This document shows positions 1-51,269 of a DNA stretch of 64,000 nucleotides, in pieces. Location: assembly GCA_002245135.1 (NCBI GenBank), contig NGBS01000608.1, forward strand, positions 1-64,000, written 5' to 3'. The DNA is from Proteromonas lacertae. Its lineage: Eukaryota. The notes beneath the pieces were generated by a model. The model worked only from the letters and a program-made list of their open reading frames with translations. It did no database searches and was not told the origin of the DNA. A program made the translations under genes and the position numbers. Every line of letters begins with the position of its first letter. Within the stretch, counting starts at the first letter, position 1.

Positions 1-3000
1 AACATTAAACTATCATACACTATATAATAACCATTTATTCCACCAACTGAATTAGAAGATTCTACAGAATAATCAAATCCAAAATATGCATTTGTTATTT
101 CTTCTTTTACAGGATAATCTTTCTCTAGTATTAATAATAAATGAATTATATTGGATTTTATATAGATTCCATTCTCATTTATAAAATCACATTGTTTACC
201 TTCATTTCCTTCCATTACACTAGAAAATGGATTTGGATCTAATAAACCAGTTGACTAGCTATTATCTCCACTTTTCCATTCATTATTTTAGCTGCATAGA
301 ATGATCGAGAGATATAGTTATTTGACATTAATTCAACAAAATTCGATCCTATCTCTTTCTTTACTCCTACCATTCCTTTTCTTACTGATGTTGGATCAAA
401 ACTATAAGATTCTCTACTCCCATTTCCCACAGTTTTACAGCTGTATAAGCAGCTTTCTGTTGATTGAACTAATTTGAAATAAGAACCAAATCGATTTGTC
501 ATTTTCATAAAAATTCATTCGCTTTTTCATATTTTCTTTCACTTCCTGTTCCAACTGCTATAAACCAAGAACCAAAGAATATATGATTCTCAAAATATTT
601 TTCATTTGTTTTAGTATCATATGCATCAACAAAATAATGAATATATACAAAATTTACTTCAGATGATTCCAAAGAATATAATGATTCAGATAAAGATAAA
701 GATAATTCATTATTCACTAAATCCATTATTACACAACCTTTATTATAATCACTCTTTATATTCTTTATTTCATCATTGTTAACTATCTCATTATAAATAT
801 AGAAATTATATTTTCTTTTCAATAAATCAAAATATCTTGAAATAATTCTTTAGAGGCATAACTAAATTCATCTTTATCATTATAGATTATACAAAATCCT
901 TTTGAATAACTCAATAAAGTAGATCGGAAGCATGAAGTAATTGATTCAAATTAGCTTGATTCACTATTCCATAACTATTACAATTTTCACCTTTCCGCTA
1001 TTCCCATATAAATAACAATTTCTTCGCTTTGTTAAAATAAGGAATCATTATATTATATTCTTTATCCCATAAACCACCAAATATTGCATTTACACCTGTT
1101 AATGCAGAGGTTTCTTTACTGATTGAATCTAATTTCTTTAAATCACTATCACTACTAATTATATCTACTTCAATCTGATTTTCCTATTAAACCATTTTCA
1201 TTTGTATTTATTTCTTCTACTGCATATAATATCGCACTTACCATCTCTCGGCCTCTTAATTCATCTCGACCATTCAACGATGCTATTATCTCAATCTTGT
1301 TACTTGGTTGTTTGTATTTTGAACCTATCTTTGTATCATTTAATACACATTTATATAATCCTGTATTTATAAACTTCTTCCAAGTTTAGGTCTTCCATTA
1401 TCATCGATTGCTTTCACTGTTATTTTTCCATTTCATCATTATAATATCGACCTACATACGTTCTTCTTTGGATTATGTTATTTGTTGCTAATTGCCATTT
1501 TCCTATTGGAGTTGTATATTCATTTTTGTAGAAATATTCTATTCCTATATCTCTGATCGATTTATCATCTTTTCCACTTATTAAATAATAATATCGATTG
1601 ATTGTTTCAGCCCAAAATAACACACAAGAATACATTGATTCATGATATCCATTCACTTCTAAACCACTTGGTAATGGATATCTCAATATATTCTAAATCC
1701 AATATTTCCAATTGATTCGATTGAGTTTAAATAATGTCTTAAACAAAAGAATGGTAATAATTTCTTTATTGAACCATTTGATACTGCCAAATGACTTACT
1801 TCTTCACATGTTGAGAATGAATAAAAAACATATTCATCAGTTGTTACACCTAAATCAACTAAAGCTTCAGATAATAATAAATGAATTCGAGCATTTCCAA
1901 AGAATAAAATTGTATTTCCACTTGGTAACATTGTCTTTATATTCTTCGCTATTGTACTTAATGACATTATATTCTCATCTAAACTTACGGAATATGTCAC
2001 ACTTCCTTTCAAATAATCGATATATCTTTCAGCATATGTACTGTATTTGATTGAAGTAGATTCAGATGTTCCAATTATTGCAAAATTCTTTAATCCTTGG
2101 TTTAATAATCTCATTATATAGATTTCTATAGAGGTTGGTTCTAATCCAATATGAATTATATTCTTTTCACAACTTTCACCTCCAAATAATCCAATATGAA
2201 ATAGTTTTATATTCTTTTCATTCAATTTGGGTAATATCATTTCTAAACACATTGAATTACTCGTACTAAATACCACATCATATTCATTCGTATTTAACGC
2301 TTCATTTAAACTGTTAAAACATATTGTTGAATCACTTTGATCATCAATTATTAAATAATCAACTTGTTTGTTATTGTTTATTCCTCCCAAATTATTTAAT
2401 TGGATTATTGCTTCTTTAAATGTTTCAGATATACCTACATAATCAGAATAATATATTCCTGAATTTGAAGTTACTAATATCACATGAATTATCTCTGTTG
2501 TGGATGTTGCACCACCATCATCATTATTGATATTTTCATTATTTATTAAGGTTGTTGTATCACACATTTTTCCATAATTTTCTGCAACATTCCAATCAAA
2601 TGCTTTAGGAATTGATCTTTGAACTGTTTTTACTACTTCTATTCCTTTTCCACTGTATTTATATACATACATATCTCGAACTAAATAATTACTCTTATCA
2701 AACCAAGTAGTTTGATCAGAATTTAGATATATACTGTATAAGTATTGTTTTAATATCAACAAATTTAAACTACCAGCATTACTCATTGCACTGATTATTG
2801 CATTTATTCCTATTGACATGGAAATTCCATCATCAGTTGTTTTGTAAAATCCAATATATTTCAATAATCGAGCTTCAGTTCTTTGAATTATATCACTACT
2901 TGTTACTGCACTATCTACACTTGAAACATAATAGAATTGATAAGGAATTCGATTATATTTCTTTTCAACTTCATCAGCATAGATTGACATTGAAAATATA

Positions 3001-6000
3001 TAATAATTATTTTCATCAGGATTGAGTTTCTCTAAAGTTTCTATTAATGAAAAGAATGGCTTTTTACTTAAGAAACTAACAATTATTCCTCCATTACTTA
3101 CACTTAAAGAATTGATTAATTGTTTTACTGTTTCCATCGAAAAGCGTTCAGTTTCTTGCATACTGAACTTTTGAACTACTCTCATTGAAGATGTGATTGA
3201 ATTAACAAATACTTCATAGAATTTATCCCAACTTGGATTTGGAGTATTAATTAAGATTATGTTTGCTTTATTTGTATTTTCCATATAAGAGATTGTTGTA
3301 TCAATTACTTGATTGATTATTGGACCGGTATAAAATACATTCTTATAACATTTTTCACCTATAAATCTTCCACTAACTATCAATAAACTATTATATTCTT
3401 CTGTTATTCGAACTGCTATATTTCGACAATAATCGGTTGTACATCCAACCATCAAGAAATTCACATTTTCATTCTTTATTCCAACTCCTAATTCATTTAT
3501 TTCATTCAATAATTTAGTTTTTAGTTTATTATCATTATCATTGTAGAATATATATATCAAATTCAGAAATCGACCTTTCTTTGTTGTTTCAACATTCAAA
3601 TTTATCTCATCAACTATCGCAGCTGAAGCTACTAACATTTGATAGAAATGAATTTCATTCTTTTGAGATAATATCACAAATAATGGGAAATAATTTATCA
3701 AATATTTTTCACTATTAATTGAAATGGTAAAACTACATTTATAAATATTTTTATTTTCGCTTATTAAATAAGTTGAATAAGGATCGGGAATTCTAGCTGT
3801 TGAAGAATCATATAACACTTTAAAATCGACTACAGAATTCTTGTTTTGAATTGTCATTATCAACGAAGGAATTGAGATTATATGATTTTCATTTATCATT
3901 AATGTTCCAATTGGAGAATTCACACTCACTCCACTTATTGAATTGATGAAATTTTCATATAAAAATGATTTCTTATTCTCAATTATGGATTTCCAAGCTA
4001 ATACACTTATTATTGAATAATACATATTATTAGTTGAATAATAGGATTCTACTAAATATGGATATAAATCTTTATAATATTCTACTATCAAATCATTCAT
4101 TTCATTTCCTTTTATTCCTTTCTTACTTGTCATTATCAACTGATTCACAAAATATCCAGAATATAATGGTAATACATTATAATCAACTCCAATATAATAT
4201 ATTCGGAAATTGGGTCTTACTATTTTACTTTCATAAAATACTTTAGCTAAAAATTGCATTTCACCTGTTTCCATCATTACTATGATTATTCCACTAGAAG
4301 TTAAATATGTAAATACTTGTTCGATTATGGCTTCATAACTTCTTCCATCTTTTAATATTCTGATTGATTTTAATACTTTGATGTTTAATGACGATAAATC
4401 ACTTATCAATATATCTTTAGATTTTCGACAGTATTCTACATCATTGTATAAAATCAAAACTCGAAATTTTGTCTCTAAATAATCACCTTCAATATAATAT
4501 TTTATTAATGTTCTGGATGTAAATGGAATTCCAACATATACTATATTCTCTTTACATTCTAATCCTTCATAATCATGAGGATAAAATAATATCATTTTAT
4601 ATTCAGATAATTTCTCTTTTATCTCATTTCGCATTTCGGAATTACTTAATCCAAATATATAAGATATCTTTTCTTCTTTAAATACATCCAAAGCTCCAAT
4701 TACTTTACTAACATCAGAATTTACATCTTTTACTATTGGTAAAATTATATATCCTCTTATTCCATTGTATTTCTCATTTATTACTTTACATATCAATATG
4801 TATGATAATAACATTGCAATATCTTGTTTAGCATAAGATCCACTTAATGATAATAACAAACCAATATTTATCACTGTTCGATAGTATTTCTCAGATCTTG
4901 AACTAAGCCAGTTACAACTGTATAGTGATTTTGGTAATATTGAATCAATATATACATTTGCTTCATTGGATTGTTCTAATAAAGTCATCATATGTGTTAA
5001 TATTCCATTACTATTATAAGCACTTATTGCTAGTGGATGACTTATCACATTATCTTGAGTAACTACTACTTTCCCAAATAACGTTTCAAATCCATCACTT
5101 GAATATAATTCATTTACTGTTGAATCAAAATTAGATAATACAGAACTGTCTTTTATTGATTCACATAACAAGAATAATGGTAATAAATACTTCAATTCAT
5201 ATCCATTCATTATATAACCATTTCCTAATACATTGTTGATATAATTGATGATTTTGTTACTCTTTAGATTTATTATATCTGATATTAAGAAATAATTTAT
5301 ACTAATTCTATTTTGAGTAAATGAATTATCTAAATTGAATGTGTAATAATAATAACTTAGCTTATAATTATTTAAATTATTTAAGAAATATCTCAATTTA
5401 TCATCACCTAAATTACAGATAATATAAGCATCTGAAAAATTATCTATTTTTCTACTTGAATAGTAATCCAAATTACCAATAAATTGGTTTATTTTATAAG
5501 CTATAGTATTAACATTTTCATTTAAATCTATTTGTAAATGACTTATTACTTGAATATCTAATTCTTTTATGGCTTTTAGAATTAGATTGTTTTGACTTTC
5601 TTTACTTGCATTATTATCATAAATAAATGCGATTTTACTTCCATATCCATATAATAAGAATTTCATCGCTGAATTTATAAATTGATCAGGTGAAGGAGAT
5701 ACAAAGAAGATGTTCTTTTTACAAATATTTCCTTCATTTATTCCAGTATAAAATAATATAGAATTTTGTAAACATAAACTGTTAGAATATAGTTGAAGTG
5801 AATCTATTCCACATCCACCTATGAAGATTCGAATATTATATTCATTTTGATCATTTTCCATTTTTTCAATTAAGGAGGAAGTCATTGGACATTCATAATA
5901 ATGATAAATCTATAAATAATAATAATATCAATTAAATATACAATTATTCTGGAGTTTAGATAATCTTCATTTCTTATATAGTTTGCTGACCATTTCAATA

Positions 6001-9000
6001 ATAATTCTATTTGTTCTTTTATTAGGTAATTATCATTTGATATTATTATTCCAATATGTAATGGATTGTTATAAATATTATTTATATCATATGAAAATAA
6101 ATTGCATGTTTTACTAGTGTTTGTCCACATCTATAATAATAATAATAATCATTATATAAATACTGTTGTATCATATCCATTTCCATACATTGGAGTTGGA
6201 TAACTATAGCTAAGTATAGGAAGTCCTACCATTTCACATCCTGTACTACCAGGTATTGTGCATGGGTAAAATACGATAGCAAATCCTTTGGTATAATAAT
6301 GAGATTCAGATAATTTCACTCCATCCAATTCTGCTGTTTTCATTTCTAAATTGTGGAGATAATTCATCATGGATTCTACCTTAAAAGTACCAATTTTTGA
6401 ATATCCATCTCTCAATATTTTCATTGGTTGATAAACATTCAAGAAGTTTTGAGTGATTAAATCTTTTGTTCCTGAAACTAATTCTATATCTTGGACTAGT
6501 TTATTAAAAGAATTTGATTTAGAAAAAGGATTATAACTATAAACAAAATATTGAGCACCATATGATAAAGAAACTGTATCTCTATAAATGTAATTAAACA
6601 TATATGAGTATTTACAATTTGTCATACTTAACATAGCATAATCATTTCTCACACTATCTGCATCAATGAATAAAATTAAAAATGCAACATATTCATAAAG
6701 ACTTTGATATGTATTACATATTGTTATAAAATCAATTGTTGAAGTTCTTACAAATAAAGAAGTTGTATCATTATATCCTTTGTAGATCAGATAATTCTTA
6801 GATTGTTCAGTTAATGAGATTGAAAATCTATTATATATATAAATAAAAACTATTATACTCATCTTTATCATCATATATTATTATCACATTCTTTGTCAAA
6901 CTCAATATTGTATCAATTGTCAAATATAAACTATTCTCATTTACTCTAGAATAGTAAAAAAAAGAGATAGTTAAAGAAAATATATTATATTAAGATCAAC
7001 AGAAAAAAGATATAACCATTATATTTGATTCACATGTATTACCTTCATAGATATAAAACAATATCAACAATTTATCATACTTATGTAATATTGGATTAAA
7101 ATATTCTACTTCTTTCTTTTTCAATAATCCTAAAAATGCTATTACATTCTCTTTCTTACAATCATTTATCAATGTTTCTTCTATTTCAGTTATATTATTC
7201 TTATATAATGGCAATAATGGACTTAAAATACCATTCGCTATTCCTCCAAATGTGTTAATCAAATCAATTGCATAATAAATATTACTAACTATATCAATTG
7301 ATTCTTTACTATCAAATCCATTTATTGGAACTAAAATCACTATATAATACTCTTTTCTACTCGATATAAATAATGATCCTCCTGTTATATAGTTATTATA
7401 ATCACACATTTCACCTGTTATATTATTAAAATAATAACTCTGTAAATTCGCTTTTGATTCAACCAATTGATCTGTTAAAGACATTACTGCTTTATCTTTT
7501 ACATTCTTTACTATATACTGGTAAGAATAACCAGAATCAGATAAACTATATGGACCATGAATAGTATCAATTCTTGCTGTGAATAATTGTTGAATTAATA
7601 AATCAAATTTCAATGTCATTGAATTACGAATTACTTTATCCCAAAGTTTAACTGAATGAAAAGCAGTAAACTCCATCGAAGATATATACATTGAATTATG
7701 TCCACCCATTTCACTTATAGTATTCATGAAAGAATAATCTTTATCGGCTCTATTCCATGTATATGGTTCAAATGAGTAATAACCCAATATAAATGGATTT
7801 CTATCATCATATTCAGCTATGTATAACACATAAGTTTTTAATGGGTCTAAAGATAATCCTTTATATGCATTTAATATGGATGTAACATAACTACTTTCTA
7901 AACATAAAATCACATTTCCTGAGAATTTATTACTCGATTCTGTATTATCATCTACAAATAGATGCATTCTAATATAAGACATGGCTGTAAATCCTTCAGC
8001 TATTGAATCATCTTTCATCACATATTCATATATATCTTTTATTTCATTCTCCATCAACATATGCTTCAAATAATTCGAAGTTAATTCTCCATATTTCAAT
8101 CTACTAGATATTATTGCTACTGGAGCTGTTGAACTTCTTAAATCGTTAATATAAAGAAATTTGGCTTTTACTGTAAATGATAAACCAGTGTAAACTATTT
8201 TCTCTTGACATTCAACACCTGTTGAATATCTTTCAGCCATTATTTGAATATCTTCCATTTCATTTGATTTTAATTCTATTTAAACACACAAAATATGATT
8301 TATATATACTTTGAATTAATAGATTTCTATCTTCTATTGTTAATGATGTAAATATGAAATTATAAACATTTAAATCATAATAATATTTCAATATTTTCAT
8401 TGTTTCATTTAAGGATTGTTTGTTATAATCAATTATTATTGGATAAACTGTTATCTTCAATAAACCCTAATTAACATTAAATAATATATATATATATACT
8501 TCTTCATTAGATTTTCTAATTTGATGCATTTCAGCAACTAATGCTGCTTTCTCTGAATAATTGTTATTACCTGATAAATAATGTAATAAAACTACACAAT
8601 GAACATAATTCACTTTACTTAAAGGACTAGAAACATTCTTCATCAATTCTGGTCTTCCCATATGTTCAACATAAGTAGATTTTATATTGAATAATAAAGT
8701 ATATACATTTGTAGTGGTATATATATTAACAATTATTGGATATATTATAACATTATATGATGTTAATGTCATTGTATTACTACCATCAAAATCTTCATTT
8801 CTATCATGTAATGAGTATATTAGAGTTGGATATTCTAATGTCTTTGATCTAAAATAACCAGCTTCAAACATTTTATATAACATAAATCTATTAATTAATA
8901 ATATAAAACAATATTTTCATACAGTTTATGAACAACCACTTGATTATCATCAGATGTCAATAATGTTGTGTCTATAACAGATTTATCTTGATTATAAGCT

Positions 9001-9833
9001 AATACAAACCTGATATACTCCCACTCTGGGTCTGATGTTGCTAATGTTGAAGGATTTGTGTCATCTTCAAGAATTACATCGATATCAAATCCACCATCAT
9101 TTCCTTGGGTTTCTAATCCATTGTCATAATATGCTTTCACTAAATCTGCCAAAATTGCATTCTTCACTAACACTATGGAAGAAAAACCTATTTGATTCAC
9201 TAATGGGTATTTCTTCAATGTGGATATTGTATTTGTTAAGTCTGTTGGTGTTTCAGGGAGTTCAATTATTTCTAGAGGAGGAACTGGGAAATATTCCAAC
9301 ATCTTTTTAACGGCTGAAGCATAAGGATGAGAGTTTTGATAAATAAATACACAGTCTCGGTTTTCATTAGCATAAATGTATACTAAAACAGAAAAACAAT
9401 AAATAATATAATATATACATCTTTCGAGTGTTTTGTATATCGATCCAAAGAATATAATATTGCTATATATCTGTGTTTCAGGTAAAGGGTGAATATTCCA
9501 CAATATCATACCATTATCCGATAACAGAGTGTTAATCTCGGTATAATTCGCAAATTTGACTAGATTGAAAATATTAAGAATGCCATTCTGTTTATATTCC
9601 AATAATACTTTTTCTAATCCTTGTCCATTACTACCTACTTCTTTACTTACTATATCTACAGTATATTTAAAAGTTGATGAGATGTTGACTTGCTTAAAGA
9701 AGTCATCTCTATAACCATCATCACTACTTGAGTGTGGATTATTCATTAAAAATCCAATTTTTATAGCATTTTTACAGCTGACTTGTGTAATCAGCAATAG
9801 AAGTGTTATAATGCCAAAATTAGTAAACTTCAT
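1..9833 (-). CDS. Giant secreted/surface protein with at least 9 tandem type-1 periplasmic-binding (UrtA/AmiC-like) domains; 3' end runs off the window
   Basis: ATG 9833 gives signal peptide MKFTNFGIITLLLLITQVSC. Short introns join ORFs 8895, 8467, 8260, 6996, 6152, 5882 and 1683. Repeated motifs INIGLLLSLSG...IN..GGI and FYPHDYEGLECKENIVYVG / IGEKCYKNVFYTGP / GGESCEKNIIHIG resemble UrtA YPVQYEGQECSKNIFYTG. Frameshifts/stops below ~1700. Confidence 0.8.
6954..7013 (-). other. U12-type AT-AC intron (60 nt)
   Basis: 5' ATATCTTTT, branch TTCTTTAAC, 3' TAC. Removal restores NIMV|YSRVNENSL. The nearby GT-AG option leads to an immediate TGA. Confidence 0.8.
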
Positions 9834-16754: not shown

Positions 16755-17433
16755 ATGTCATTCTTCACAAGAACTATTAATGCTTATAAAAGATCGCTTA
16801 CTGTATATGATTTACCTAACCTATAGAATCGTCCATTTTTAACAAATGTGTTTGTTGTTTCAGGTTTTATGTTTTTTGGTGATATAGCTGCTCAGAAGAT
16901 TAAAAATCATCGTAATATTAAGGTATAATAATATTAAAATAGTTGATCACAAACCAAAGCCAATTGATTGGGTAAGAAGTGTAGAAATGGGTATTTGGGG
17001 TTGTTTAGTAGCTCCTCCTTTGACAGCATGGTATAGGATTCTAGGTAAGTTTTTTGATGTAAGAAAATACAAAAGTCACATACTTGGTAAAGTAATATGT
17101 GATCAAATTATTTGGGCTCCTCTTAACATATTAACATATCTTTGTTATTGTTCTTTAATTAATCATCCAACAGATTTTGAAGGAATGAAGAATAAATTAA
17201 AAGCTCAATATTTACCAGTAATGAAGACAAATTACTGTGTTTGGCCTTTTGCTCAACTCGTTAATTTCAGTCTTATTCCAGTACAAATATCTTTTTTTAA
17301 TAAGTATTCTATGAATTAGTATATTTTAATCTATGTTGTTTACCATCAAGTTTTATTTGTTCAATTTTGTTCGTTATTATGGTCTGTTTATTTATGTTTC
17401 GTCGGAAATGAAGAAGTTAAAAAAGAAGAATAA
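16755..17433 (+). CDS. Mpv17/PMP22 family membrane protein
   Basis: RPFLTN...GDIAAQ, DWVRS, KVICDQIIWAP, NYCVWPFAQLVNFSLIP. Confidence 0.9.
17287..17343 (+). other. U12-type AT-AC intron (57 nt)
   Basis: 5' ATATCTTTT, branch-like TTTTAAT, 3' TAC. Gives gapless LIPVQ|HQVLFVQ. An in-frame GT-AG alternative (17281-17319) exists but adds 6 residues. Confidence 0.65.
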
Positions 17434-19333: not shown

Positions 19334-19493
19334 TTATCAAATATCTTCTCAATTAACTATATTTCTATTATAACTATAGCTAATAATGTTGTTGTATTTT
19401 TGAATAAACTAATAGAGTTTTTCTTCTATGTAAAAACAATCAAAATCTATCAAGCCAAAAGCTTGATATGTTTATGTAATTATTTTTCTAAAC

Positions 19494-21691
19494 ATGTCTC
19501 AGAAGAATGATACTATAATAAAAAGGCTTGGTAGTGGTACATATGGAGTTGTATATTTGGTAAAACATAACAATGAAGAAGTATCAAGAAAAGATATAAA
19601 AGTTGATAAATCAGATCCAAAGAGTGTAGAAAGCTGTTTGAACGAGATAAATATATTGAATAGTTTAAGAGATAGAAATGTATTAATTTATAAAGGTTGT
19701 TGTTGTGATAAATCTACTTCTACATATTATTTATACACAGAATATATGAAGAATGGTGATTTATTTGATTATATAAAAAATAGAAGGATTCAAAAACAAG
19801 AATTTGGTTTATCTGAGATTAAAGAATTTGTAATAGATTTAGTCAGTGGATTGAAATATATTCATTCTAAAAGAATCATCCACAGAGATTTAAAACCTGC
19901 TAATATATTTATAGGAAATCATTATGAGTTAGTTATTGGTGATTTTGGTATATCAATGAATAAAAAGCTTGTAGATTATCAATTGATTGGAACAGCTGCA
20001 TATATTGCACCAGAACTATGGACATGCAGTCCACCTTCATATTCTGTAGCAAGTGATATATTTGCTTTAGGTTGTATTTTGTATGAGATATATACATTTA
20101 AAATGTGTTTTGATCGAATGAATAATATAGCAATTCGTAATTTGATATTAGATGATTATTATCAACCAGATTTCAACTGTAGAAAAGAAAAAATAGAACC
20201 AGTTAAAATTTTAATAACTGATATGTTAAAAAGAAAACCAGAGAAAAGAATCAGTTTAAGTGATATTGAAAATAGAATTAAGAATATGACATTAAAAAGA
20301 AGTAATTCAATGCCAGATGTTCTTAATAATCAAAATGAAAAAAAATATAATAAATTTATAGCAATTTCAAATAGAAATAACTCTGAAATAATACAAATTA
20401 ATAACAATTGTCGTAATTCCAAATCAATATCAATATCATCATCCTCCACCACCCCAACAACATTATCACTCTGCTGGAATTTATTATCAACAGAATTATC
20501 AACAGCCGTTTCAACTTAACCAGCAACAGCAACAACATTATCAATCTGACAATATAATCTATCAACAAAATCAATTTCGATCTCCTCCTCCTCCTCCTCC
20601 TCCACCACCACCACCACCATTACTGCTACAAAATATGCAATTCCAATTATCATCACCTCCTCCAATACACTATCATTCAAAGAAAAACAAAAAGAAAGAA
20701 AAGCAAAATAAAAAAAAGCAAAATAGGAAGAATAGAAGAGAATATAGTTCATCATCATCATCATCATCTTCAGAATCTGATGTAGAAATAGTAAAATCTG
20801 TAGATGATATAGATATACCAGATGAAATAGATGTATAATATATAATATATTAATTTTATATTTGAATAGATAATAAAGTTTTACTCAGGAAATAGTTGTT
20901 ATAAAGATAATGATTTAAACTTCTATTTGAATATGAGAGTTGATAAAAGTCAATCATATTTTAATGAAGATGATATAAAAGTATGAATCTAACGATTATA
21001 ATGAATAGTTCTTATTTCCAGAATTGAATGAATTTTCATTTACACAAAAGCAAAGAGATGAATTTATAAAGAATGATTTAATAAGATATTATTATTTTGA
21101 TTTAATCGTAATTGTAATAAAGGAAATATGGTTATATAATTCGAGATGATTTATCATTTGATAAAGATCCTGATTATTATGAGTATATTTATTCTGTTTA
21201 TTTATATAATAATGATAATAGAAAATGGAAAGGTAAAGAAGAAACAATGAAAATATTGAAAATGTTAAGAAGAAGTATAAAAGACACATTTAATGATAAT
21301 GAATATATAAATTTAATAGAAAAACTAATAAAGAATCGTATATAAAAACATATTTATATTAATTCTATAGAAACAGAAAAAAGATATGAAGATATGAAAA
21401 AAAATAATAATAGGATAATGAAAAGAAGTAAAAAAGAAAATTGTAATAAGAATAACTATGATAATATCGTTCTTAATTATGACAAAATAGAATTATGTGA
21501 TTCTGTGAAAAGAAAGAAAAATAGTGATGTTAGAATAGAAAATGGTGATGATAAAAATGGTATATTATTTATGTGTATATATTTTAGAAGAATCAAAAAG
21601 TATAAAAATTTCAATAATAGTTGTATATCTTACTGTAATGGCTTTTTGCTTATCAAAGATATTTTTATTTATAGGAATTTATGATAGTTAA
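19494..21691 (+). CDS. Gene C: NEK-like Ser/Thr kinase + P/Q-rich linker + OGFr-N-like domain + C-terminal TM tail
   Basis: GSGTYG, HRDLKPANIF, DFG, GTAAYIAPE. One frameshift near 20330-20420 and one near 21122. Exons IIKFYSGN...FLFPELNEF. Last exon EESKSIKISIIVVYLTVMAFCLSKIFLFIGIYDS*. Confidence 0.75.
20819..21378 (+). repeat. Inverted duplication, arm 1 (~560 bp)
   Basis: Reverse complement of 22662-23220, near-identical including introns. Confidence 0.95.
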
Positions 21692-23923: not shown

Positions 23924-24286
23924 TATTTAAATTTTTCGACTTCTAATTGTTGTGTAAATTAAGAATATTTCTATCAAACCTTCAAGCCTTTTTTCTTTTT
24001 TAAGCTTAATCTCATCTGCTAAGCTTCATAAAGCTATAAAGTTATGATAAATAAATTAAAAATGTTTAATTTGGCATAACATAGATATGAAGGTTGTTTT
24101 TAGAAAATGTAAATAATTTTGACTAAAATTAATGCTTCAGGTTCTATGTTTATATAAAAATTCTTCATTTGTGTTTCTTTTTAGTTTATATCATTGAAAT
24201 TCATAATTATGTAATATTTTAACTGTTTTTACATAAATTACTAAAATTGGGGATTTAACGAAAATTTTCAAATTTTTATTTTTAGA

Positions 24287-27200
24287 ATGAGCTATAAGAC
24301 AGATGAAATTATAAAAACAATAGGCAAAGGGAGTTTTGGAGATGTATATTTGGTAATTAATAATGGCTGTGAATTGGCTAGAAAGGATATTAAGGCAAGT
24401 AGTTCAGATATGAGTGAGGTACATCACGAAATTGATCTTTTGAAAAAATTAAGGGATAGAAATGTAGTAATATACAAATATGACTTTTATGATAAAGAGA
24501 GTGGCATTTATCATATCTACACTGAATATTTTGCCAAAGGTGATTTATATAATAGTATTAAACAGCATAGAGATAGTAGAAGTGATTTTAATGAAAAAGT
24601 ATATTTTTGTTTTACATTTTCTTTACATAGACTATTATAAGTAGTATTAGAGACTTAGTCAGTGGATTGAAGTATATTCATTCACAAGGAATTATTCATA
24701 GAGATCTAAAACCAGCCAATATATTTATAGGCATTCATAATGAATTAGTTATAGGTGATTTTGGAATATCAATAAAAAAGAATGTAGATAATAGCAATCA
24801 TTTAATTGGAACAGCTGGATATGTAGCTCCAGAACTATGGACAAGTAATCCACCATCATACACACCAGCAAGTGATATATTTGCTTTAGGTTGTATAATA
24901 TATGAAATCTACAGTTTGAATTTATGTTACTGTGGTAATACATCAGCTGTAATTCGTAGTTTGATAATAAATCCGAAATATAAACCTCAGTTTCATAGAT
25001 ATACGTCAAGAAATAAAGCAATAGAAGAATTAATAATGAAGATGTTAGAAAGAGATCCAATGAAAAGAATTAAATTAACAGAAATAACAAATTTTATTAA
25101 TTCAAATAGTTTTGCTATTGATAATATACAGGAAACTCAATTTATAGATGTTAATGAGATGACACCTTTACAACCTCAGCAAATACAATCAGTTCCAATA
25201 CAGCCACCACCTCTTTCTCAACCATCTCAATTACCACGACAAGTACAATCTCAACAACAAATGCCAATACAACAGTTACAATTTCAGCCACCACCACTTC
25301 CTATACCAATTCAACAACCAGTATATAATAATCCCTATAATCAATATCAAATAACTCCACCTCCTTTTTATATTCCAGGTCAATCGTTTCAATTGAATTA
25401 TCAACAACAACAACAAACACAACAACAATATTATATGATGAATCAAAATACAGTATATTCAAATCAACCTACTCCACAACCACCTCAACCTCCACCAAAT
25501 ATATATCATCAACAACAACAGCAGCAACAACAACAACAACAATATCAAACTAAATGTGATGAAGAAGAAGATGAGGAGGAGGAAGAGGAAGAAGAAGAAT
25601 CAAGTGAAGAAGAAGAAGAGACTAATAAAAGACATAGAAATCATCATCATTATAAACATAAACATAAACATAATCACAGTAAATCTCATAAATCAGATAG
25701 TAATGATAATGAAGAAGTAGAAAGGGATGTAAGAAAAGAAAAAGGTGTAAAAGATGTAAGTGAAAAAGATGTTAAAAGTAATATGAAAAAAGATATAAAG
25801 AGTGAAGTTAACAGTGAAATGAGAAATCATTTATCAAATGTATAACTATTATGATATACTTCATATAGATATGTGAATTTTACAGAGGTAATTTTTCATT
25901 CAAAGGAAGAAAGATTATACAATATTTTCAATTAGATTTCAAAGATTTACTGGATATTGATTTTTATGGTGATAAATATGTATTATATAGTTTTATTATT
26001 TATATTGAAATAGTTTTATTTCCCAACGCTCAATCAAACAATATTTCCTTTTACCATAGATAATAGAAGCAGTATAGTGATTTTTTTAAATTTATAATAT
26101 AGCATTTAATAATGATGATATAATAAAAATTAATTATGAAAATCTTGTTGAAACTGCATTAAACAAATATGGTTATGAAGCAGAAAAGTATCCAGGAATA
26201 GTACATTCAAAAGGGTTTGATATGTTTAAAGGAAGAGATGAAACAATTAAAATGTTTCAACAAATAAGAAAATCTATTGAAGATATATACAATAATAAAT
26301 ACTACTTGGATATGATTGATGAATATATAGCTGAACGTATCTTTATTGATGTTATATATAATAGAATATGCTAGTAAGTATGAAAATGAACAGCCAGTTG
26401 TTGAAAATAGATATGAAAGATCTCCAATTATTGATTATTATGAAAATGAAAGAATTATATTAGGATATAAAATCAAAGATTTATCTAAACTAAAAAAAGA
26501 TGAATTTAGAAGAGAATGGAATGAGAATTATTATAAAGTATATTTTGTGTATGTTTATATCTTGTAGTGGATATTTCCTACTATTAGTCAAGAAGATCCA
26601 TCATTTACATTTGAAGATTTACAAATTCTAAAGAATAACAAAAATACTAAAGATATTTATAGAACAGTAATTCAGAAGATATTAGTACTTCATGGAATTG
26701 ATATTAAGAAAAATCAAAATTATAATTTGAATAAACAACACTCTTCAATATTGATAAATCAGATAGAAAGAATATCTCCATTTTTAGATTTAATGGAAGA
26801 TCAAGAATATTCAAATATGTTAGAATCGATTGAATATTCATTGAAAGGCATTATAGATGCAGATGAAGCAAAAACTGTTGTATTTTATTTAATTGTTATA
26901 ATATTTTAGAGTGATTTTCTTTTTTTTAATAAACCATTGAATGGATATACAATTACTGAAATTGAAGCAATGACTGCTGAACAGTTTTATGAGTTTGATA
27001 TTGATAAATATTTACCAGTATAATTCATTACTATTTCTTTTTATCATTTAGTGGATTTTTCCTAATTCGATTCAAGAATATCCTAAAGTATCACAGGAAG
27101 ATAAACATAGTATGATTTATTTGCAGTTTAACAAATTAATAGATATTGACTTACATTCTATGTCAATTATGGATATAACAAGAGATATTATTATTAAAAT

Positions 27201-40641: not shown

Positions 40642-42023
40642 TCACAATCTACTCAAGCATTTCATTCGTTTATTCAAATTATAACACTCTTCTTTCATCT
40701 CATTCAGTATTTCATTCTTCCGCGATGTGTAATAGAATATGCAAAGGAAGAAAACACAAGATACAGTAACAAAAGCACTAACCACGAATGGAACTCTATG
40801 GTGAATAGTATACAATCCACCGAATATAAGTGGACTAATAATTTGACTTAAACATGAAAAGGTATTAATAGTTCCTAGAATTTTACCTTGATTCTTACTA
40901 GAGAAATATGACTAACCAAAACAGAGTAACTTGATACAGTCATACCAAATCCAAGCAAATACACTACACTGCCACTCATTACGATTGAAAATGGTGTTGA
41001 TATAATGAATATCCATCCAATAATTTGAATAATATATCCTATAAACATTGTATGTCCAATATAAACATATTTACATAATAATGGAAAAAGAAATAATTGA
41101 AAAATTGTCATTATACATGAATTAAAAGATGCAATACCTCTATATATAATTAAAAAAGGAATATATATATACGCTAATATTACTTGGTTATTAGTATAAT
41201 CATCTTTTAATCTTTTACCTAAATAAGAAGAATTACACATTAATGCAACATTATCACACAATGATAATATGCAAATAATATACTATAAATAATAACATTA
41301 GAAAATATACAATTGATATGTTGGATAAATCCTGATTTGAAGTATCTTCACTTTTGTTATTATTTTCTTCAATTTCTATTTTTCTCACTGCATCATTACT
41401 TTCGTGAGTCAATAATCTCATACTACTTCCTATATAATAATAGAATAGATTATGCTTTGATTATCAAAGTCAAATTTTGGACTGTCATCTAACAGTATCA
41501 AATCAACTACAAATATTAATGTATAAACTACACCACACATAGAAAATGGAATCCAATTGCCATAGTTATATAAAACACTACTAACAAGTGGACCAATTGA
41601 TAATGAAAGTGTTGAACAACCAATTATTCTACTTAAATATTTTGTTTTTTCTTCTTTCTTTACACAATCTGAAATATAAGCTTGACAAGTACCAAGTGTA
41701 GTTCCAAAAAAGCCAGCGATGAATCGAAACAATATCATGAAATAAATTGAAGGTGAAAACATTTGTAATACTGCGCCTAGCATTGATCCAAATAGTGTAA
41801 TTAAGATCAGTTTCTTACGACCAAATTTGTCACTTAAATAACCTGTTGGAATATAACTAATGAACTGAGCAGCAGGATAGCTTGAAAATAGTAAAGAGTA
41901 CAATAAGTTGCTGTTATTTCCAGCATAAAATGGTAGTAATGGCATTATAAAAGACATGCATGCCATATCTGACACTACAGTTAAGAATATAAGTACCAAA
42001 TTCTTTTTAAACTTGTTGTTCAT
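40642..42023 (-). CDS. MFS transporter (DHA1/TetA-like) copy 1, with a 1-bp frameshift and a GC-AG intron
   Basis: GYLSDKFGRKK motif A. One base is missing near 40903 relative to copy 2. Intron 41430-41455 starts with GC. Confidence 0.85.
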
Positions 42024-42164
42024 TTGTTAGACAAAAAATGTTTTGTATGTCAAGCTTTTCTTCAAATCTTTGTGTTTTATTTTTTAAATATCATTGTATA
42101 GATTCTATATAACATTAAATCACATGTTTTTATTTAATATATGTGTAAAGCTGATTATACAAAT

Positions 42165-42616: not shown

Positions 42617-45600
42617 TCATGCCTCTAAATCATTAGGAATAAAATTTTTAAGCCATTCTGGATAGAATTTCATACTTCTATCATCTACTTCATTTATACT
42701 TACTGTTTCATTGGGACTGATGAAGAATAAACCAAATGGACTTTTCTTTGTAACACGTGTAGTATTGCTAATATCATTTATGTGATTATAGTGTTTGTAT
42801 ACATGTTGTAGTATTCTAACCATCTCGGGTGAAAAAGTATGGCTATTACTAATCGTAAGTTGAATACCAAAAGGACCAATCATTCCGTCAATATCGGGGA
42901 AATTTGTTCTGTAACTTAAGTCTAGTAAGTACATCTTCCCTTTTTCTTCTATTTTCTCTTTAATTTCATCATCATTTCTCACTGCAACCACTTCTATTTT
43001 CTTTTCACTTGTTGAGAATTCTTTTCTAATATTCTTTTTATCTTCTCTATTTATGCCAATCACATCTACATATGTATCTTTTAAACTCTTGTTTTCACTA
43101 CACATTCTATTAAAAACTAAATTCATAAAATTATTATCTACTTTCATTAAATAAAATACAATATTCTCATATAAGCATCCTTTTATACTTTCATTTCTTA
43201 ATGTTAACAATAAATCTATCATTTGTATACATTTTTCTTTTGTTGTAATTTTAAATATAGATTCTTTCACCATATTTTTTACAGTTTCAGATATAAATGT
43301 TAAGTTATCGTATATTCTAACATCATCTTCATAAGTTTTATAAATAAATATATTGTTGTTGTATTTACCTTCAATTATATCCTTTATTCTAATCTGTTTA
43401 ATTTCATAGTCTATTCCACTCTGATCAATTCCATTATTTCCTATTACACCACCATAATATTCATAGTTGTTCCTGTAATTTTTTCTGATTTTGTTATATG
43501 AAACAAACGAACGTTTATTATTTAGTTTTTGTTGAAGAAATCTATTTTCATCAAATTCTTCCTCTTTTATTAATGACGAATTTAAATGCATTTCTGTAAT
43601 TGCCATATTTGACACATGTACATCTAAATCATGTTTATTCATGAAGCAATTGGGATAATTTCGATATAATTTATATTTTGGATGTTTCAGAATTATCACT
43701 TTTTCCACTTCTTCTTTTGTAAATGGAGGTATATACATCACAAGTGGACATCTTTTACTTTGAAATGCCTTATACTCTTCTTTTGTTTGATCAGCTATTA
43801 ATATTATCATTTTCGCTTCTGGATATTCATCTTCACCAATTACAGCTCCAAGTGAAATAACAATATATGGTTCAGTATCTTTATAGTTATATATATTTTC
43901 TTTTCGTTTTTCTTTATCATTAATTGTTATTATTTTGAAATTTTGATTGTTTTGATGAATATGTTCTTTTAATACAGCTGCTAAGACTGTTTTACCAATT
44001 CTTTCATGACCAAAAATTAAGTAGTTCTTTTGATTTTCATTAGTAAAACTGTAATCATTATTAAAAATAACATCAAGTATCTTTTTATAACAATCTCGCA
44101 TTAAATAAATTCTTATATTATTCTCTATAAATGCTTCTATTTTCTCTGGTTCTTGTACTTTACATAATGGAGGCGGAATTTTTGTATTTAATCTTTCTAT
44201 TAATTCATTCCTACTTCCATTTGCATCTAATCCATTCATTGTTAATATATTCTTTAATTCATCTTCTGTTAAGTTATTGTAATCATAATCCATTTCTTCA
44301 TTGTTATTATATCCTTCTTCTTTTGCTTCTTCTTCTGTTGCTGCTTTTGCTTCTTCTTCTGCTGCTGCTGCTTCTTCTGCTTCTGCTTCTGCTTCTGCTG
44401 CTTTTAATTTATTAATTAATTGCGCCTTGTTTCCATTTTTTGTTAATCCTTTCTTTCCTAATAATTCTTTTAACTGAACAACTGTTAATTCTTCATAATT
44501 AACATTATTTTCACCTCCTACACTTACTATATCAATTTTATCCCCATCTTCTTTTAATATACAATAAACAAATTTGCTATTTTGGTTCTCATTATAGTTC
44601 TATTATATATTATAAGTTATATATAGATAATACTTTTACTGATTCTTCCATTTTATTTTTAGTATCATTATTATCTATAAATGTCTCATTGTTATATAAT
44701 ATTTTTATAAATACACCATTCATAATTAAGTCAAAATAACTATCTTTATCCAATATAAAATAAAGAAAATTCTTTGCACCTACAGGACAGTATAGTGAAT
44801 TCTTTTTCGTTGACTTAAATTGAAAATATTCATCTTTATTCTCAATTTTGATTACTTCTGTTGCTAGTTGATACGCTGTAATTTGTTTCAATGCTACTTT
44901 CTTCATATCCACATCAGCTATGCTACTGTAATTCTTAACTAGATTAAGATATTCATCATTATTTCTAGGAGGATAGAAATTATAAATTATGTAATCTTTA
45001 ACATATTTTGATATAAATTTCAAATGATCTTTGTTTGGTTGATATACATCATGACGTAAAATTTCATTATACATCTTCTTTAAATCATATTTTAATATGA
45101 TATTCGACAAATCTTTTCTTTTTAAATAATTATTATTCTTATAATTATTTAAAAATTTGTCATAACCATCTGAACCTACAACACCTTCTATGAGTTTTGT
45201 ATAATATTTCCAATAATCTTCATTATAATTCTTATTATATAAATAACTGAAGTACACTAACCTGGGAATATTACCATAACGTTTACAAACAAGTTTAAAA
45301 CTATCACTTTTTACATCAACATTATCAAAACCAATACAATTCTTAAACCAATTCTGAATTTCCTTAAATGTTAATGATTGAAAATATAATTCGACTTTAT
45401 ATTCATTCTTTAGATATATATCATTATTCTCTTCGTCTGGAGAACTAATAGAAATAACTGTATTATCATTTTTGAAATGCATATTACAAGTATCCACTAT
45501 TATTATTGCTTTGCTAATAGCAGAAGTATCAATATCACTTAGAGTAAGACAATAACTCATCATTGTCGTATATACCAATCTATAAACTTTTGTTTTTGAA

Positions 45601-46181
45601 TAATCACCATGTTTCTTACCTTTTACAACAAATACACCACCTGTATATCTTTCATTCCAAAATGGATTCTTCTTTAGTTTGTATAATAAAAAATAAATAA
45701 ACGAGGTCTTACCAATACCAGGCTGACCAGTTATTACTGCATTCCAATGAAACTCTTTTTCAATAATTTTCTTTATATCTTCATACATGCTATTATAACA
45801 TTTTCTGATGTAAACTTTTTTCTTAGGAAATTGAAATACATTTACATTAACACTTGAAAATTCCAAATACTCACTATCTGCACTATTATCTTCTTCATCT
45901 TCATCATCATCTTCATCTTCTTCTTCATAATCATCTTTTTCATTTGGTATTTTGGTTAGATTCATAGAATTAATGATATCCACAAAACTATCACTTATTA
46001 TATCTACTATTCTTAGATAGTTATTATCTCCTTGGTTATTACCACCTCCATTTCCATTCATATTCATAACTGGAGTTGTGCCTGAAGCTGTATTTACAAA
46101 TCCACCTGTATGTTCATCTTTACATTCATCTTCAGCTACGTTTTTACCTTCATCTTTATTTATAATAGAATCTTGCTCCAT
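42617..46181 (-). CDS. Crinkler/RHS-type protein: P-loop NTPase - degenerate REase - SAP - SAP - NTPase - PD-(D/E)XK-like REase
   Basis: Phase-0 intron 44600-44633 joins the two ORFs. VYIRKCY..VITGQPGIGKT; SAP motifs LTVVQLKELLGKKGL..NGNKAQLI and LTEDELK..L..NGL..NGSRNELIERL; YLMRDCY..GHERIGKT; NFPDIDG...IQLTISNSH. Confidence 0.75.
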
Positions 46182-46563
46182 ATAATTGTTTAAAGGCTAT
46201 TAAGTGAGATATTAAGGATTATAATTTCAATCAAATCAAATCAAACCTAATTTTATCAGTCAATAGAGAGAGAGAGAGAGATGTTGATAACAAATGAATA
46301 ATTATCTTTTTTCATTAACTTTCTTCGGGTCAATTATTATCTTAAAATAAACTATATTACCACATTGTTATAAAAATATTAACTGATGATACTACTATAT
46401 CATCTTCCACTTCGAATTAAAAATGGTGTAAGGAGTAGAATTAAAGAGTAACACATTCATGTTGTTGATAAAGCATATTCAATTTAATAGCACAAAAACA
46501 CATATTTAAGTATATATATCATAAAAATAAAGAGAAATATTTTTCATTTAATCACAAACTATT

Positions 46564-48032
46564 TTAACTACTCACTCGTTTATTCAGGTTATAACACTCT
46601 TCTTTCATCTCATTCAATATCACATTCTTCTTCGACGTAAAGTAGAATAATAACAAGAATAAAACACAAGCAACTGAAATAAAAGTACTTACAAAGAAAG
46701 GAACTTTATGATGTATAGTATACAATCCACCAAAAATGATTGGACTAATAATTTGACTTAAACATGAAAAGGTATTAATAGTTCCTAGAATCTTACCTTG
46801 ATTCTTACTAGATACAATATGACTAACCAAAACAGAGTAACTTGATACAGTCATGCCAAATCCAAGTTCATGAATTACAGCACCACATAAAACAATTGAG
46901 AATGGAGTAAATACTATTAACATCCATCCAATAATTTGAATCATATATCCTATAAACATTGTATGTCCAATATAAACATATTTACATAATAATGGAAAAA
47001 GAAAAATTTGAAAAATTGTCAATACGCATGAATTGAATGAAGCAACTCCTCTATATATATATATATATATATTTATATTTATTATTATTATTATTATTAT
47101 TATTAATACGCAACAATGATTTGATTATTAGTATAATCATCTTTGATTCTTTTACCTAAGTATGAAGAATTACACATTAATGCAACATTATCACATAATG
47201 ATAATAAACATATAATATACTATAAATAATAAAATATATATTAATAAATATACAATGGATATATTAGTTAAATATTGATTCATATTCTCTTCAGATTTAT
47301 AACTTTCTTGTCTTGATATTTTGGGTAAATATATTTCTATATTTCCACTACTTGCTCTTGGAATCCTTCCAGCTATTGTATCTTCACTGGTTATAACAAC
47401 ATCATCATCTTCATGACTTAATAATCTCATACTACTTCCTATAAAATAGAAGACTAATGAATACTTTGATTATCCATATCGAATTTTGGACTGTCATCTA
47501 ACAGAATTAGATCTATTATAAATATTAATGTATAAACTATTACACACATTAAAAAAGGAATCCAAGTTCCAAAATCATATAAAATACTACTCACAAATGG
47601 ACCTACAGAGAATGCAAGTGTTGAACATCCAATTATTCGACTTAAATATTTTGATTTTTCTTCTCTTTTCACACAGTCGGTTATGTAGGCTTGACAAGAA
47701 ACGATTGTTGTTCCAAAGAAACCTGCGATAAATCGAAATAATATTAAGTAACCAAGTGATGGAGACAACATTTGCGCTACAGCACCTAGTATAGATCCAA
47801 ATAGTGTAATTAAGATCATTCTTTTACGACCAAATTTATCACTTAAGCAACCCATGGGAATGAAACCAATAAACTGTGCTGCTGGATAACATGCAAATAA
47901 AAATGAATAAACTGTTGCATTACCATTACCAGCATAAAATGGTAATAATGGCATAATGAATGATACTGCTGCCATATCTGACACTACAGTTAAGAATATA
48001 AGTACCAAATTCTTTTTAAATTTGTCATTCAT
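46564..48032 (-). CDS. MFS transporter copy 2
   Basis: GCLSDKFGRKR; 3 introns; paralog of copies 1 and 3. Confidence 0.9.
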
Positions 48033-48246
48033 TCTGTTTTTAATAAAGAATCAAATATTTACAAGCTGTACTTCAAGCTTTTTGTTTTAATAAACCTTCA
48101 TATTTCATCTTTTAATTCATATTGAAGTACTGAGACATATTATTGTATATTCATTTTGCCTAATACAAAACTAAATCAATAGAATACATATAATTCAACA
48201 AATATATGATAATAGCATAACTATCCATTTAGTTATATATCCTATA

Positions 48247-49610
48247 TTAACAAGTAACTCCTTTATTCACATTATAACATTCTTCCTTCATTTTATTCAA
48301 TACTTCATTCTTTCTGGATGTATAATAGAAAATAAAAATGAAAAAAACGCAACTTATATTAATCAAGGTAGCAGTAAAGAAAGGAACTTTATGATCAATA
48401 GTATATAATCCACCAAAAATGATTGGACTAATAATTTGGCTTAAAGAAGAGAAAGTATTAATTAATCCCAAATATTTCCCCATATTCTCATTTGAAACAA
48501 GATGACTAACCATAACAGAATAACTGGAAGCTGTCATACCATAACCTAATCCTTTAATTACAGCTCCACTTACCATTAATGAGAATGGAGTTGATAATAT
48601 TAGCACACATCCAATGATTTGAATAATATATCCAATCAACATAAAATGTGGAATGAAAAGAAATTTACATAATAATGGAAATAAAAAGAGTTGAAAAATT
48701 GTTAATACAAAAGAATTGAATGAAGTTAATCCACTATATTTTAAAAATAATAAATAGAATTATACGCAACAATTACTTGATTGTTTGTATAATCATCTTT
48801 GATTCTTTTACCTAAGTATGAAGAATTACACATTAATGCAACATTATCACATAATGATAATAAACATATAATATACTATAAATAATAAAATATATATTAA
48901 TAAATATACAATGGATATATTAGTTAAATATTGATTAGTTTTATCTTCACTTGTTTGATTTGGTATTTTCATTATTTCTTCTTGCTCTTCCTGACTTAAT
49001 AATCTCATACTACTTCCTATTAAATAGAAGAATAAAGAATACTCTGATTGTCTTCATCATATTTTGGACTATCATCCAAATATATTAAATCAATCACAAA
49101 TATTATCCCATAAACTATTGCACACATTAAGAAAGGAATCCATTTGCCATAATTGTATAAAACACTGCTTATAAATGGCCCAATAGAAAAGGAAAGTGTC
49201 GCAAATCCAACTGTACGGCTTAAATATTTTGATTTTTCTTCTTTCTTAACACTATCTGATATATAAGCCATACATGAAACTATTGCTGTTCCAAAACAAC
49301 CAGCTACAAATCTAGCAAGTATTAAATAGATTAGTGATGGAGAGAACATTTGTAATATTGAGCCTATTATAGATCCAAATAATGGTATTAAGATCATTAT
49401 TTTTCTTCCAAATTTATCACTTAAACAACCAACTGGTATGGAACTAATAAACTGTGCTGCTGAATAACTAGCAAACAGAAAAGAATACATTGTGGCACTG
49501 TTATTACCAGCATAAAAAGGCAATAACGGCATTATAAATGACATTGCTGACATATTTGCTACAACTGTTAGAAAAATAAGAATTAGATTCTTTTTAAACT
49601 TGTTATTCAT
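48247..49610 (-). CDS. MFS transporter copy 3
   Basis: GCLSDKFGRKI; same exon structure as the other copies. Confidence 0.9.
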
Positions 49611-49811
49611 TGAATTTTATATTCTGTCAAGCCAAATTCTTTTATGATTTGTGTTTTTCTTATTGTATAGTTCGTATATTATTGCTAGAAGATATTCATT
49701 TATCATGAATTGTAATGTTAATAGCAATGCCCCCATATATTAAAACACAGATAAATCAAATGAACTCTCTAATGAAAAGATGGACATTTAAACGATACTA
49801 TGCTAATAATA

Positions 49812-51269
49812 TTAGACCTTAGCTTCAATTGAAGAAGTTGAGTTGGTTACTTTACTTATTTCAGGAGTAACAGGCGAAATAGGTGACACTAGATTGTCAT
49901 AAGTATTTTCAGGTGATTTAATTGCAGAAATAGAAGAATCTTCATCAGATCTATCACTAGAATCATCAATTTCAATATCACTAAATACAATTTGTCTTGG
50001 CATACTGGACATCCTAGGATAATCTTTCTTATTATTATTATCATCATCATCTTCATTACGTTTCAGATTTTTCGATTCATCAATATCATGAGGAAGAAGA
50101 AATTTATAAGATAGATCAGTACCAAAGGCACCAAGTGGAGCTGTTATTAAAATAGCAAAAACAGTACAACTAATAATCGTTTGGCCTGATGAAATACCTT
50201 TAGCAAGTGGAATTCCTCCAATTGCAGCTTGAACAGTAGCTTTAGGTAAATAAGCGATTATACAAAACAATATTTCCTTCCATGAGAATTTATTACCAAT
50301 TACACTTAAAAATACACCAATGGTTCTAAAGCAAAGAGCTAAAAAGATTGTTGCAATTAATTTACCAGCTATTTTACCTAATCCACTCATGTCAACAGCA
50401 GCACCTACCAATGTGAATAAAATCATTTCAGCAACCATCCACATAGATGTATATCTTTTACTTAATCGATCTGCACATTTAGGGAATAGATTGTGGATAG
50501 TTATACCCATACAAATAACGGCTAGTAATCCAGCAATAGGTAACCATTTTTTAATTGCGTTTTCTAAGGCTACAAATAGAAAAGAAAAGCTTACAAGAAT
50601 TACACACTTTTTTGCATCACCTACCTTCGTTCTTTTGAAGAATAAGGTCAATACATACCCTGTTGTTACTCCTAAGATAACTGCTAGTATTATTGAAACA
50701 GGGATCTGCCATAGTATATTAAAGCTGAAACCATCACCTACAGCTACATCACATAATGCTCCAAATAATACTATTGCATATACATCATCAACACTTGATC
50801 CAGCTATTATTATTTGAGGTATTCCGTGTTTTGTTCCATAATGATTCTCTATTAAATACAGCATTCGAGGTACTACTACTGCTGGAGATACTGCTGCCAT
50901 TACACAACCCATGATAGCACCATGTAAACGAGGAATTCCTACGATATCAGGAGCTACAGCTAAATATCCTAATATTTCACAGGATGCTGGGATAAAACAC
51001 ATCATAATAGCTGATCTTCCTATTTTTTTCAAATCACCTACATCTAAGCTTAATCCACCACGACTTAGAATAATGATTAAAGCCATTTCTCTTAAATCGG
51101 TAGACATATCTAATAGTTCTTTGTTGATTAAATTGAGAGCGTTTGGTCCTAATGCTAAGCCAATACCAATCATTCCCACAAGAGGCGGTAGTTTTACCAA
51201 CGTCAAAACATAGCCAACAATTAGTGAACAAATGAACAGGATGCCTAAGCTTAATAACAACTCAATCAT
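49812..51269 (-). CDS. Cation/H+ antiporter (NHA/SLC9B-like, bacterial type), copy 1
   Basis: AAVSPAVVVPRM, AGSSVDDV, LPKATVQAAIG; intronless. Confidence 0.92.
   Translation of the reverse strand: MIELLLSLGILFICSLIVGYVLTLVKLPPLVGMIGIGLALGPNALNLINKELLDMSTDLREMALIIILSRGGLSLDVGDLKKIGRSAIMMCFIPASCEILGYLAVAPDIVGIPRLHGAIMGCVMAAVSPAVVVPRMLYLIENHYGTKHGIPQIIIAGSSVDDVYAIVLFGALCDVAVGDGFSFNILWQIPVSIILAVILGVTTGYVLTLFFKRTKVGDAKKCVILVSFSFLFVALENAIKKWLPIAGLLAVICMGITIHNLFPKCADRLSKRYTSMWMVAEMILFTLVGAAVDMSGLGKIAGKLIATIFLALCFRTIGVFLSVIGNKFSWKEILFCIIAYLPKATVQAAIGGIPLAKGISSGQTIISCTVFAILITAPLGAFGTDLSYKFLLPHDIDESKNLKRNEDDDDNNNKKDYPRMSSMPRQIVFSDIEIDDSSDRSDEDSSISAIKSPENTYDNLVSPISPVTPEISKVTNSTSSIEAKV

Follow-up and report, generated by a model that had tools for sequence, protein, structure and literature searches.

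How does an intron of the minor spliceosome come to lie within a protein domain of bacterial type? The question is raised by a gene on the reverse strand of the window, as we call the whole stretch of 64,000 nucleotides of Proteromonas lacertae DNA analysed here, in which one of the tandem repeats appears to be interrupted by a 60-nt AT-AC intron. Introns of this class are excised by a machinery in which U11 and U12 pair with the donor and the branch site and U6atac catalyses removal, and the 60-nt intron would be removed by the same pairing and catalysis. Most minor introns are regarded as ancient, and there is scant evidence that new ones have arisen outside Physarum (Larue and Roy, 2023; PMC10639083). 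In Physarum polycephalum a massive gain of U12-type introns has been described, amounting to ~20,899 introns, and the presence of minor introns in young genes was read there as gain (Larue, Elias and Roy; 10.1101/2020.10.12.336362). A minor intron in a bacterial-type domain cannot predate the transfer of that domain, so that genes of this kind offer a direct test of gain.

Such a test is of interest for Blastocystis, where 346 U12-type introns in 319 genes, together with all four snRNAs, have been reported for ST1 (Gentekaki et al., 2017; PMC5608401). A later survey counted 253, of which 196 (77%) are AT-AC and 124 (49%) are in phase 0, and named recent gain as one possible cause of the ST1 pattern without deciding the matter (Larue and Roy, 2023; PMC10639083); the gene described here makes that question testable. 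Our main reading, to which we assign a probability of roughly two in three, is that the 60-nt intron belongs to the minor spliceosome and was gained in the third repeat after the UrtA domain had entered the lineage and multiplied. A minor intron in a bacterial-derived gene was nowhere reported for the Blastocystis/Proteromonas group in the literature covered, from which subscription papers were mostly absent.

The host gene and its predicted AT-AC intron

The gene model (Table 1) runs from an ATG at 9833 to position 1700 and comprises eight introns and an open frame of 2,613 aa. The seven introns other than the AT-AC candidate are GT-AG, 31–36 nt long, and all begin with GTAT (7/7); the window as a whole has ~26% G+C and major introns of 27–37 nt. 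PF13433 positions 18–111 match the upstream exon, below cut-off, and the match ends at the donor. Within positions 1–1700 the gene carries ~8 one-base frameshifts relative to orthologs, which are likely to be long-read errors or else a sign that the gene is decaying in its 3' portion. Since the assembly is indel-prone below 1700, the worry expressed earlier, that an indel might hide a GT-AG intron, was a fair one.

Table 1. Coordinates of the host gene, the elements of its predicted AT-AC intron, and a second AT-AC candidate in the window.
Feature	Positions	Strand	Remarks
Host gene	1..9833	-	Predicted signal peptide; nine or more UrtA-like repeats (PF13433/PF13458) in tandem; runs past the window edge
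Upstream exon	7014..8275	-	Bulk of repeat 2, N-terminal portion of repeat 3
Predicted AT-AC (U12-type) intron, repeat 3	6954..7013	-	60 nt, phase 0
Predicted 5' splice site ATATCTTTT	7005..7013	-	Homologs encode Val, then Ile-Ser-Phe (11/11 close ORFs and P0027)
Branch-point-like motif TTCTTTAAC	6970..6978	-	16 nt from the 3' end; putative function
Predicted 3' splice site TAC	6954..6956	-	Back-translated tails of P0015 and P0027 give AC and a similar exon start
Downstream exon	6859..6953	-	95 nt
Major GT-AG intron	6828..6858	-	31 nt, phase 2; in repeat 3
Second candidate AT-AC intron	17287..17343	+	57 nt, phase 0; Mpv17/PMP22 gene; weak branch signal

Read-through of the 60-nt stretch is impossible, as its sixth codon in the upstream frame is TGA. 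The donor ATATCTTTT departs from RTATCCTT by a single change, at +6, and fits the form RTATC[C/T]TTT; the Ile-Ser-Phe that it encodes is conserved in 12 homolog ORFs. The branch-like TTCTTTAAC has one mismatch to the TTCCTT[G/A]AC consensus and is separated from the terminal TAC by a T-rich run, the whole intron being 83% A+T. A pattern of donor, branch motif and AC, composed after the site had been seen, matches once in the 64-kb window, at this very site, and finds matches in 3 of 100 dinucleotide shuffles (mean 0.04). Among eight listed minor-like donors with open flanks, this is the only one accompanied by a branch motif with at most one mismatch. When the intron is taken out, the junction at 7014/6953 can be aligned with cyanobacterial UrtA, as with the other repeats, without additional gaps, and the gap columns against cyanobacterial UrtA and against repeat 8 are identical, which bears out the gapless match to UrtA that had been claimed for the spliced form. 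A search of the window with Rfam returned no U11, U12, U4atac or U6atac snRNA, two weak matches lying below cut-off, and a gene for U11/U12 25K is listed for both tortoise Blastocystis and P. lacertae (PMC12129017).

In its AT-AC ends, its conserved donor and branch motif and the placing of the latter near the 3' end, the intron resembles the canonical animal and plant members of the AT-AC U12 class (Turunen et al., 2012; PMC3584512). It differs from them in that its branch motif lies 16 nt from the end instead of at the 11–13 nt optimum, and in being in phase 0, whereas canonical U12-type introns are described as mostly ancient, located in old genes and underrepresented in phase 0 (PMC3584512). 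Blastocystis ST1 offers another likeness, namely short AT-AC introns in phase 0 amid major introns of ~30 nt, but the two AT-AC introns of the window are longer, at 57–60 nt against an ST1 median of 39, and the window donor is ATATCTT, a start shared by 2 ST1 introns as against 284 that begin with ATATCCT (PMC5608401). Compared with the ST1 introns, the window intron sits in an AT-rich genome and in a bacterial-type host domain that bounds its age.

Splice-site read-throughs in homologs

That the intron does not belong to the minor class at all is a reading that could take several forms: an indel in the assembly might hide a GT-AG intron, splicing might run in frame from GT 7000 to AG 6944, or the AT-AC ends might be handled by the major spliceosome, such ends not being exclusive to U12-type introns (PMC3584512). 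The frameshifts at the 3' part of the gene lend it some weight, as do two exact in-frame GT-AG options in the window, starting at offsets -3 and +13. Profile scores by themselves discriminate only weakly between the splice alternatives: when 71 candidate splice forms were compared, one profile placed the AT-AC form at the top (73.1 bits, against 71.9 for the best GT-AG form that needs an indel and 68.8 for the best exact GT-AG form) and another placed it second (31.6 against 33.7 for a GT-AC form with which it has the acceptor in common), so that the competing forms are a mere 1–4 bits apart. Against these points, the alternative donors, GTTG and GTTA, are unlike the GTAT donors of the host gene, and the extended donor and the branch motif fit the minor consensus.

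We take the homolog read-throughs, and not the profile scores, to be the decisive support for the predicted boundaries. The ORFs in question were predicted on genomic, unspliced contigs and continue into the intron. All 11 ORFs at ~74% identity continue with Val-Ile-Ser-Phe into the donor and diverge after it, as does P0027, at 44% identity over 94 aa; ATATCYTTY encodes Ile-Ser-Phe. In P0027 and P0015 the tail reaches far enough to cross the acceptor, and when the two tails are back-translated in the shifted frame, which makes this evidence from protein and not from DNA, they indicate introns of 53 nt (P0027) and 52 nt (P0015) that end in AC and are followed by an exon start like that of the window. 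In the second shuffle test, for which the fixed window length was picked after the result was known, the P0027 score was reached by 0/1000 shuffled tails and 0/1000 shuffled exons, and that of P0015 by 2/1000 and 1/1000, respectively; a variable-length test was non-discriminating, with 559 and 479 of 1000 for P0027 and 1000 and 997 of 1000 for P0015. No in-frame GT-AG start is common to the window and either P0015 or P0027. A branch motif is allowed at nt 35 in both of these homologs and also by ~600 of 1000 shuffled tails, and single-frame back-translation of the motif does not discriminate.

Other homologs had less to offer. Five of six distant repeat-3 homologs end at an earlier intron and are uninformative for this site, no longer, spliced homolog of the upstream exon was present among 4,268 candidates, and ortholog DNA was found in none of 594 and none of 114 pattern matches in JGI metagenomes. 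From the tails that do reach the site, the same intron appears to be present in homologs down to 44% identity; its presence in orthologs had been proposed as a check. An indel-rescued GT-AG intron, which the original prediction had kept in view as an alternative, is made unlikely by the recurrence of donor, AC and exon start in independently assembled homologs, with which no in-frame GT-AG option is shared. We therefore regard a non-minor identity as very improbable, and the assignment of the stretch to a real minor-type AT-AC intron, as originally predicted from its letters, now has behind it the splice signals, the internal stop, the open 2,613-aa frame and the homolog read-throughs, which together make it very probably correct.

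Repeat relationships and bacterial affinity of the domain

The site of the intron is uninterrupted in repeats 1, 2, 4–7 and 8 of the window, extending what had been noted for repeats 4–7, and also in repeat 9 of P0001, P0002 and P0014. The AT-AC intron is thus absent from eight of the gene's own nine repeats; it is absent as well from bacteria and from the continuous ORF of P0030, which is possibly a transcript. Nearest to repeat 3 is the intron-free repeat 8 (profile score 61–66), and quick trees with long branches join the two with support of 82 and 89, the second tree omitting P0001 repeats 4–7, window repeats 1–2 and the repeat 9 fragments. A sister relation of repeats 3 and 9 found no support, as repeat 3 scores 61–66 with repeat 8 and 13–18 with repeat 9. 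Introns differ elsewhere in the family too: P0001–P0014 hold repeats 4–9 within one very long exon, and two introns, each present in five homolog lineages, are missing from the window gene, which points to intron gain or loss being common in this family.

Six PDB sequences matched the domain, UrtA being the best (1e-29); next come an extracellular ligand-binding receptor chain of 393 aa and AmiC, and none of the six bears the name of an animal class C receptor. By its PDB and Pfam matches, the host domain is classed as of the bacterial UrtA type. It has its domain family (PF13433) in common with UrtA, AmiC and P0030, and its tandem arrangement in common with P0030, but its repeats are far more diverged from UrtA (17–25% identity, long branches in quick trees) than are repeats 1–7 of P0030, which are 42–56% identical to cyanobacterial UrtA. 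P0030, of 3,745 aa, has nine UrtA-like repeats and a 7tm_3 domain, and its repeats match cyanobacterial loci at 53–56%; it looks like a class C GPCR-like receptor carrying a bacterial-type sensor array.

Published counts (PMC12129017) give 4 leucine-binding-domain proteins in Cafeteria and 54 in Proteromonas, the figures for class C GPCR domains being 2 and 116, respectively; since both kinds of domain occur in both organisms, the family may be old. The same source gives no periplasmic-binding-protein-I proteins for tortoise Blastocystis, one each for ST3 and ST4 and 182 for P. lacertae, and G+C contents of 21–23% for tortoise Blastocystis and 27% for P. lacertae.

Further candidate minor introns

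The second AT-AC candidate of the window lies in an Mpv17/PMP22 gene whose flanking exons match PF04117 positions 7–44 and 45–62, which are contiguous. A Blastocystis-type downstream element, TGTTTGTT, stands 13 nt past the stop of this gene; it is found 12–13 nt past 2 of the 18 gene ends checked, some of which were guessed.

Within the host-gene family itself, ortholog ORFs stop at an intron in repeat 9. P0001, P0002, P0004 and P0005 break off there after Glu-Tyr-Pro-Phe, a string compatible with a phase-2 donor of the form RTATCCTTT, and the ORF of P0003 ends at that codon too. Read in two frames, the tail is confined to TTTTTCTTTAAY, the branch-like motif of the window intron. It is probable that repeat 9 of the orthologs carries a minor-type intron, with the acceptor not located and Tyr-Pro possibly coding. 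In position and phase this intron coincides with the 31-nt major intron of repeat 3 that begins at 6858; with 45 pairs and uniform sites, chance would produce such a match in ~4% of cases.

The host gene and its orthologs would thus supply one well-supported and one probable minor intron, and a third appears to be held by OAO16379, a lateral-transfer fusion gene of Blastocystis ST1. Intron 11 of OAO16379 is annotated as 270 nt long (PMC5608401, S11 Data), and at its end, by eye, an embedded stretch of 38 nt can be made out, with ATATCCTT, CCTTAAC and a CAC end; it is likely to be an unannotated AT-AC intron of 38 nt. No intron among 41 of the 43 listed for 11 ST1 lateral-transfer accessions, five of which have no listed introns, is annotated with an AT start. 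Annotation that admits only GT-AG introns would break genes of this kind. Among the first 28 listed of the 284 ST1 introns that start with ATATCCT, ten end in AG and one in AT (PMC5608401, S11 Data).

Discussion

Because a minor intron in a bacterial-type domain must be younger than the transfer, gain is the likeliest history of the repeat-3 intron, and we think it probable that the intron was gained after the domain had been acquired. This much of the original prediction stands. Its further step to de novo creation goes beyond what the data support: a homolog at 44% identity has the intron in common with the window gene, which makes the gain old, and conversion from a prior major intron explains the data no less well than insertion does. 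Nor would gain as such be new, as it has already been published for Physarum and suggested for Blastocystis. Absence from the other repeats, on which the prediction leaned, is weaker evidence than it seems, both because another intron position appears to be common to repeats 3 and 9, neither of which is the other's nearest relative, and because two introns of other lineages are missing from the window gene.

These same two considerations favour a different history, in which the intron was present in the single ancestral domain of an old eukaryotic receptor family and was lost from the other repeats through recombination with cDNA. The possession of the intron by the 44%-identity homolog, the very long exon that spans repeats 4–9 in P0001–P0014, and the nine such repeats that P0030, a eukaryote-type protein, joins to its 7tm_3 domain would all agree with inheritance followed by loss, and loss can be extensive, as 11 of 12 ST1 minor introns are reported as lost in B. 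hominis (Larue and Roy, 2023; PMC10639083). Yet up to eight repeats must then have lost the intron, and the match of the domain is to bacterial UrtA, not to any class C receptor chain of animals. With a domain of bacterial type, even an intron already present in the ancestral repeat would be younger than the transfer, except if the latter preceded the last eukaryotic common ancestor. We consider this history quite improbable. A ready-made minor intron might instead have been inserted directly, by reverse splicing and recombination, in connection with repair or by a transposon like that proposed to drive intron creation in Physarum (10.1101/2020.10.12.336362), with no major-type stage. Such an insertion would account for the precision of the event, which left exon length unchanged, and would suit the phase 0 of both AT-AC introns of the window, a phase also common in the ST1 set (49%). 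The Physarum introns resemble the window intron in their RTATCYTTT donors; they differ in a branch altered to TTTGA, where that of the window intron is near-classic, and in carrying inverted-repeat and TA-duplication signatures. No target-site duplication or terminal inverted repeat was seen by eye in the flanks of the window intron, and BLAST found no copy of it longer than 16 nt elsewhere in the window, although age might erase either trace. Direct insertion strikes us as unlikely, if still a serious contender.

Given a gain, we favour class switching over direct insertion and see it as the most likely route, at a level of confidence that stops somewhat short of even odds. A short major intron would first have been gained in repeat 3; its GTAT-type donor would then have drifted to the minor consensus, while the AT-rich genome could easily have yielded a branch-like TTTAAY; and the ends would finally have shifted from GT-AG through AT-AG to AT-AC. 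The raw material is at hand in the window, where 17 of 19 candidate major donors start with GTAT and 11 of 19 are one or two changes away from GTATCYTT. The AG ends found among the ATATCCT introns of ST1 (10/28 of those first listed) suggest that an AT-AG intermediate is tolerated there, and one and the same repeat position holds a major-type donor in repeat 3 and a probable minor-type donor in repeat 9. Opinion on such conversions is divided: class conversion is considered possible in both directions by Olthof et al. (PMC11347168), whereas Turunen et al. (2012; PMC3584512) judged the change from major to minor highly unlikely, with the AT-AG-type intermediate as the barrier. AT-AG introns could also be intermediates of the reverse change, and the evidence for the route does not show the direction. 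A variant in which the intron slid by 3 nt from a GT-AG intron, the Val codon being the old donor, was discarded; Val or Ile stands at this place in repeat 8 as well, which has no intron, and the idea loses its support.

It is tempting to speculate further that protists like Blastocystis and Proteromonas are a second lineage, after Physarum, that makes minor introns at an appreciable rate, and does so by class switching, with bacterial-derived genes as time stamps of the gains and with repeats 3 and 9 preserving one position in both states. Switching would then start at short GTAT major introns and pass through AT-AG intermediates. We put this broader proposal forward as a doubtful one. No regulatory role is claimed for the 60-nt intron.

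Other features of the window

Two tandem, intron-free cation/H+ antiporter genes (PF00999) occupy 49815-53210 on the reverse strand, and their nearest Atlas clusters are bacterial, with Bacillota the commonest, which makes the pair a candidate for lateral transfer. At least three paralogous MFS transporter genes, nearly identical in their intron regions, stand in tandem at 40878-42026 and 46567-49616 (-), and amid these copies, at 42620-46196 (-), are two ORFs with P-loop NTPase-like regions, one of them with SAP domains. Duplicated protein kinase genes with Q/P-rich tails are found at 19467-20519 and 24245-25842 (+). Between them, an identical 37-nt intron sequence occurs at 20833 (+) and 23206 (-), and its repetition on opposite strands suggests an inverted duplication.
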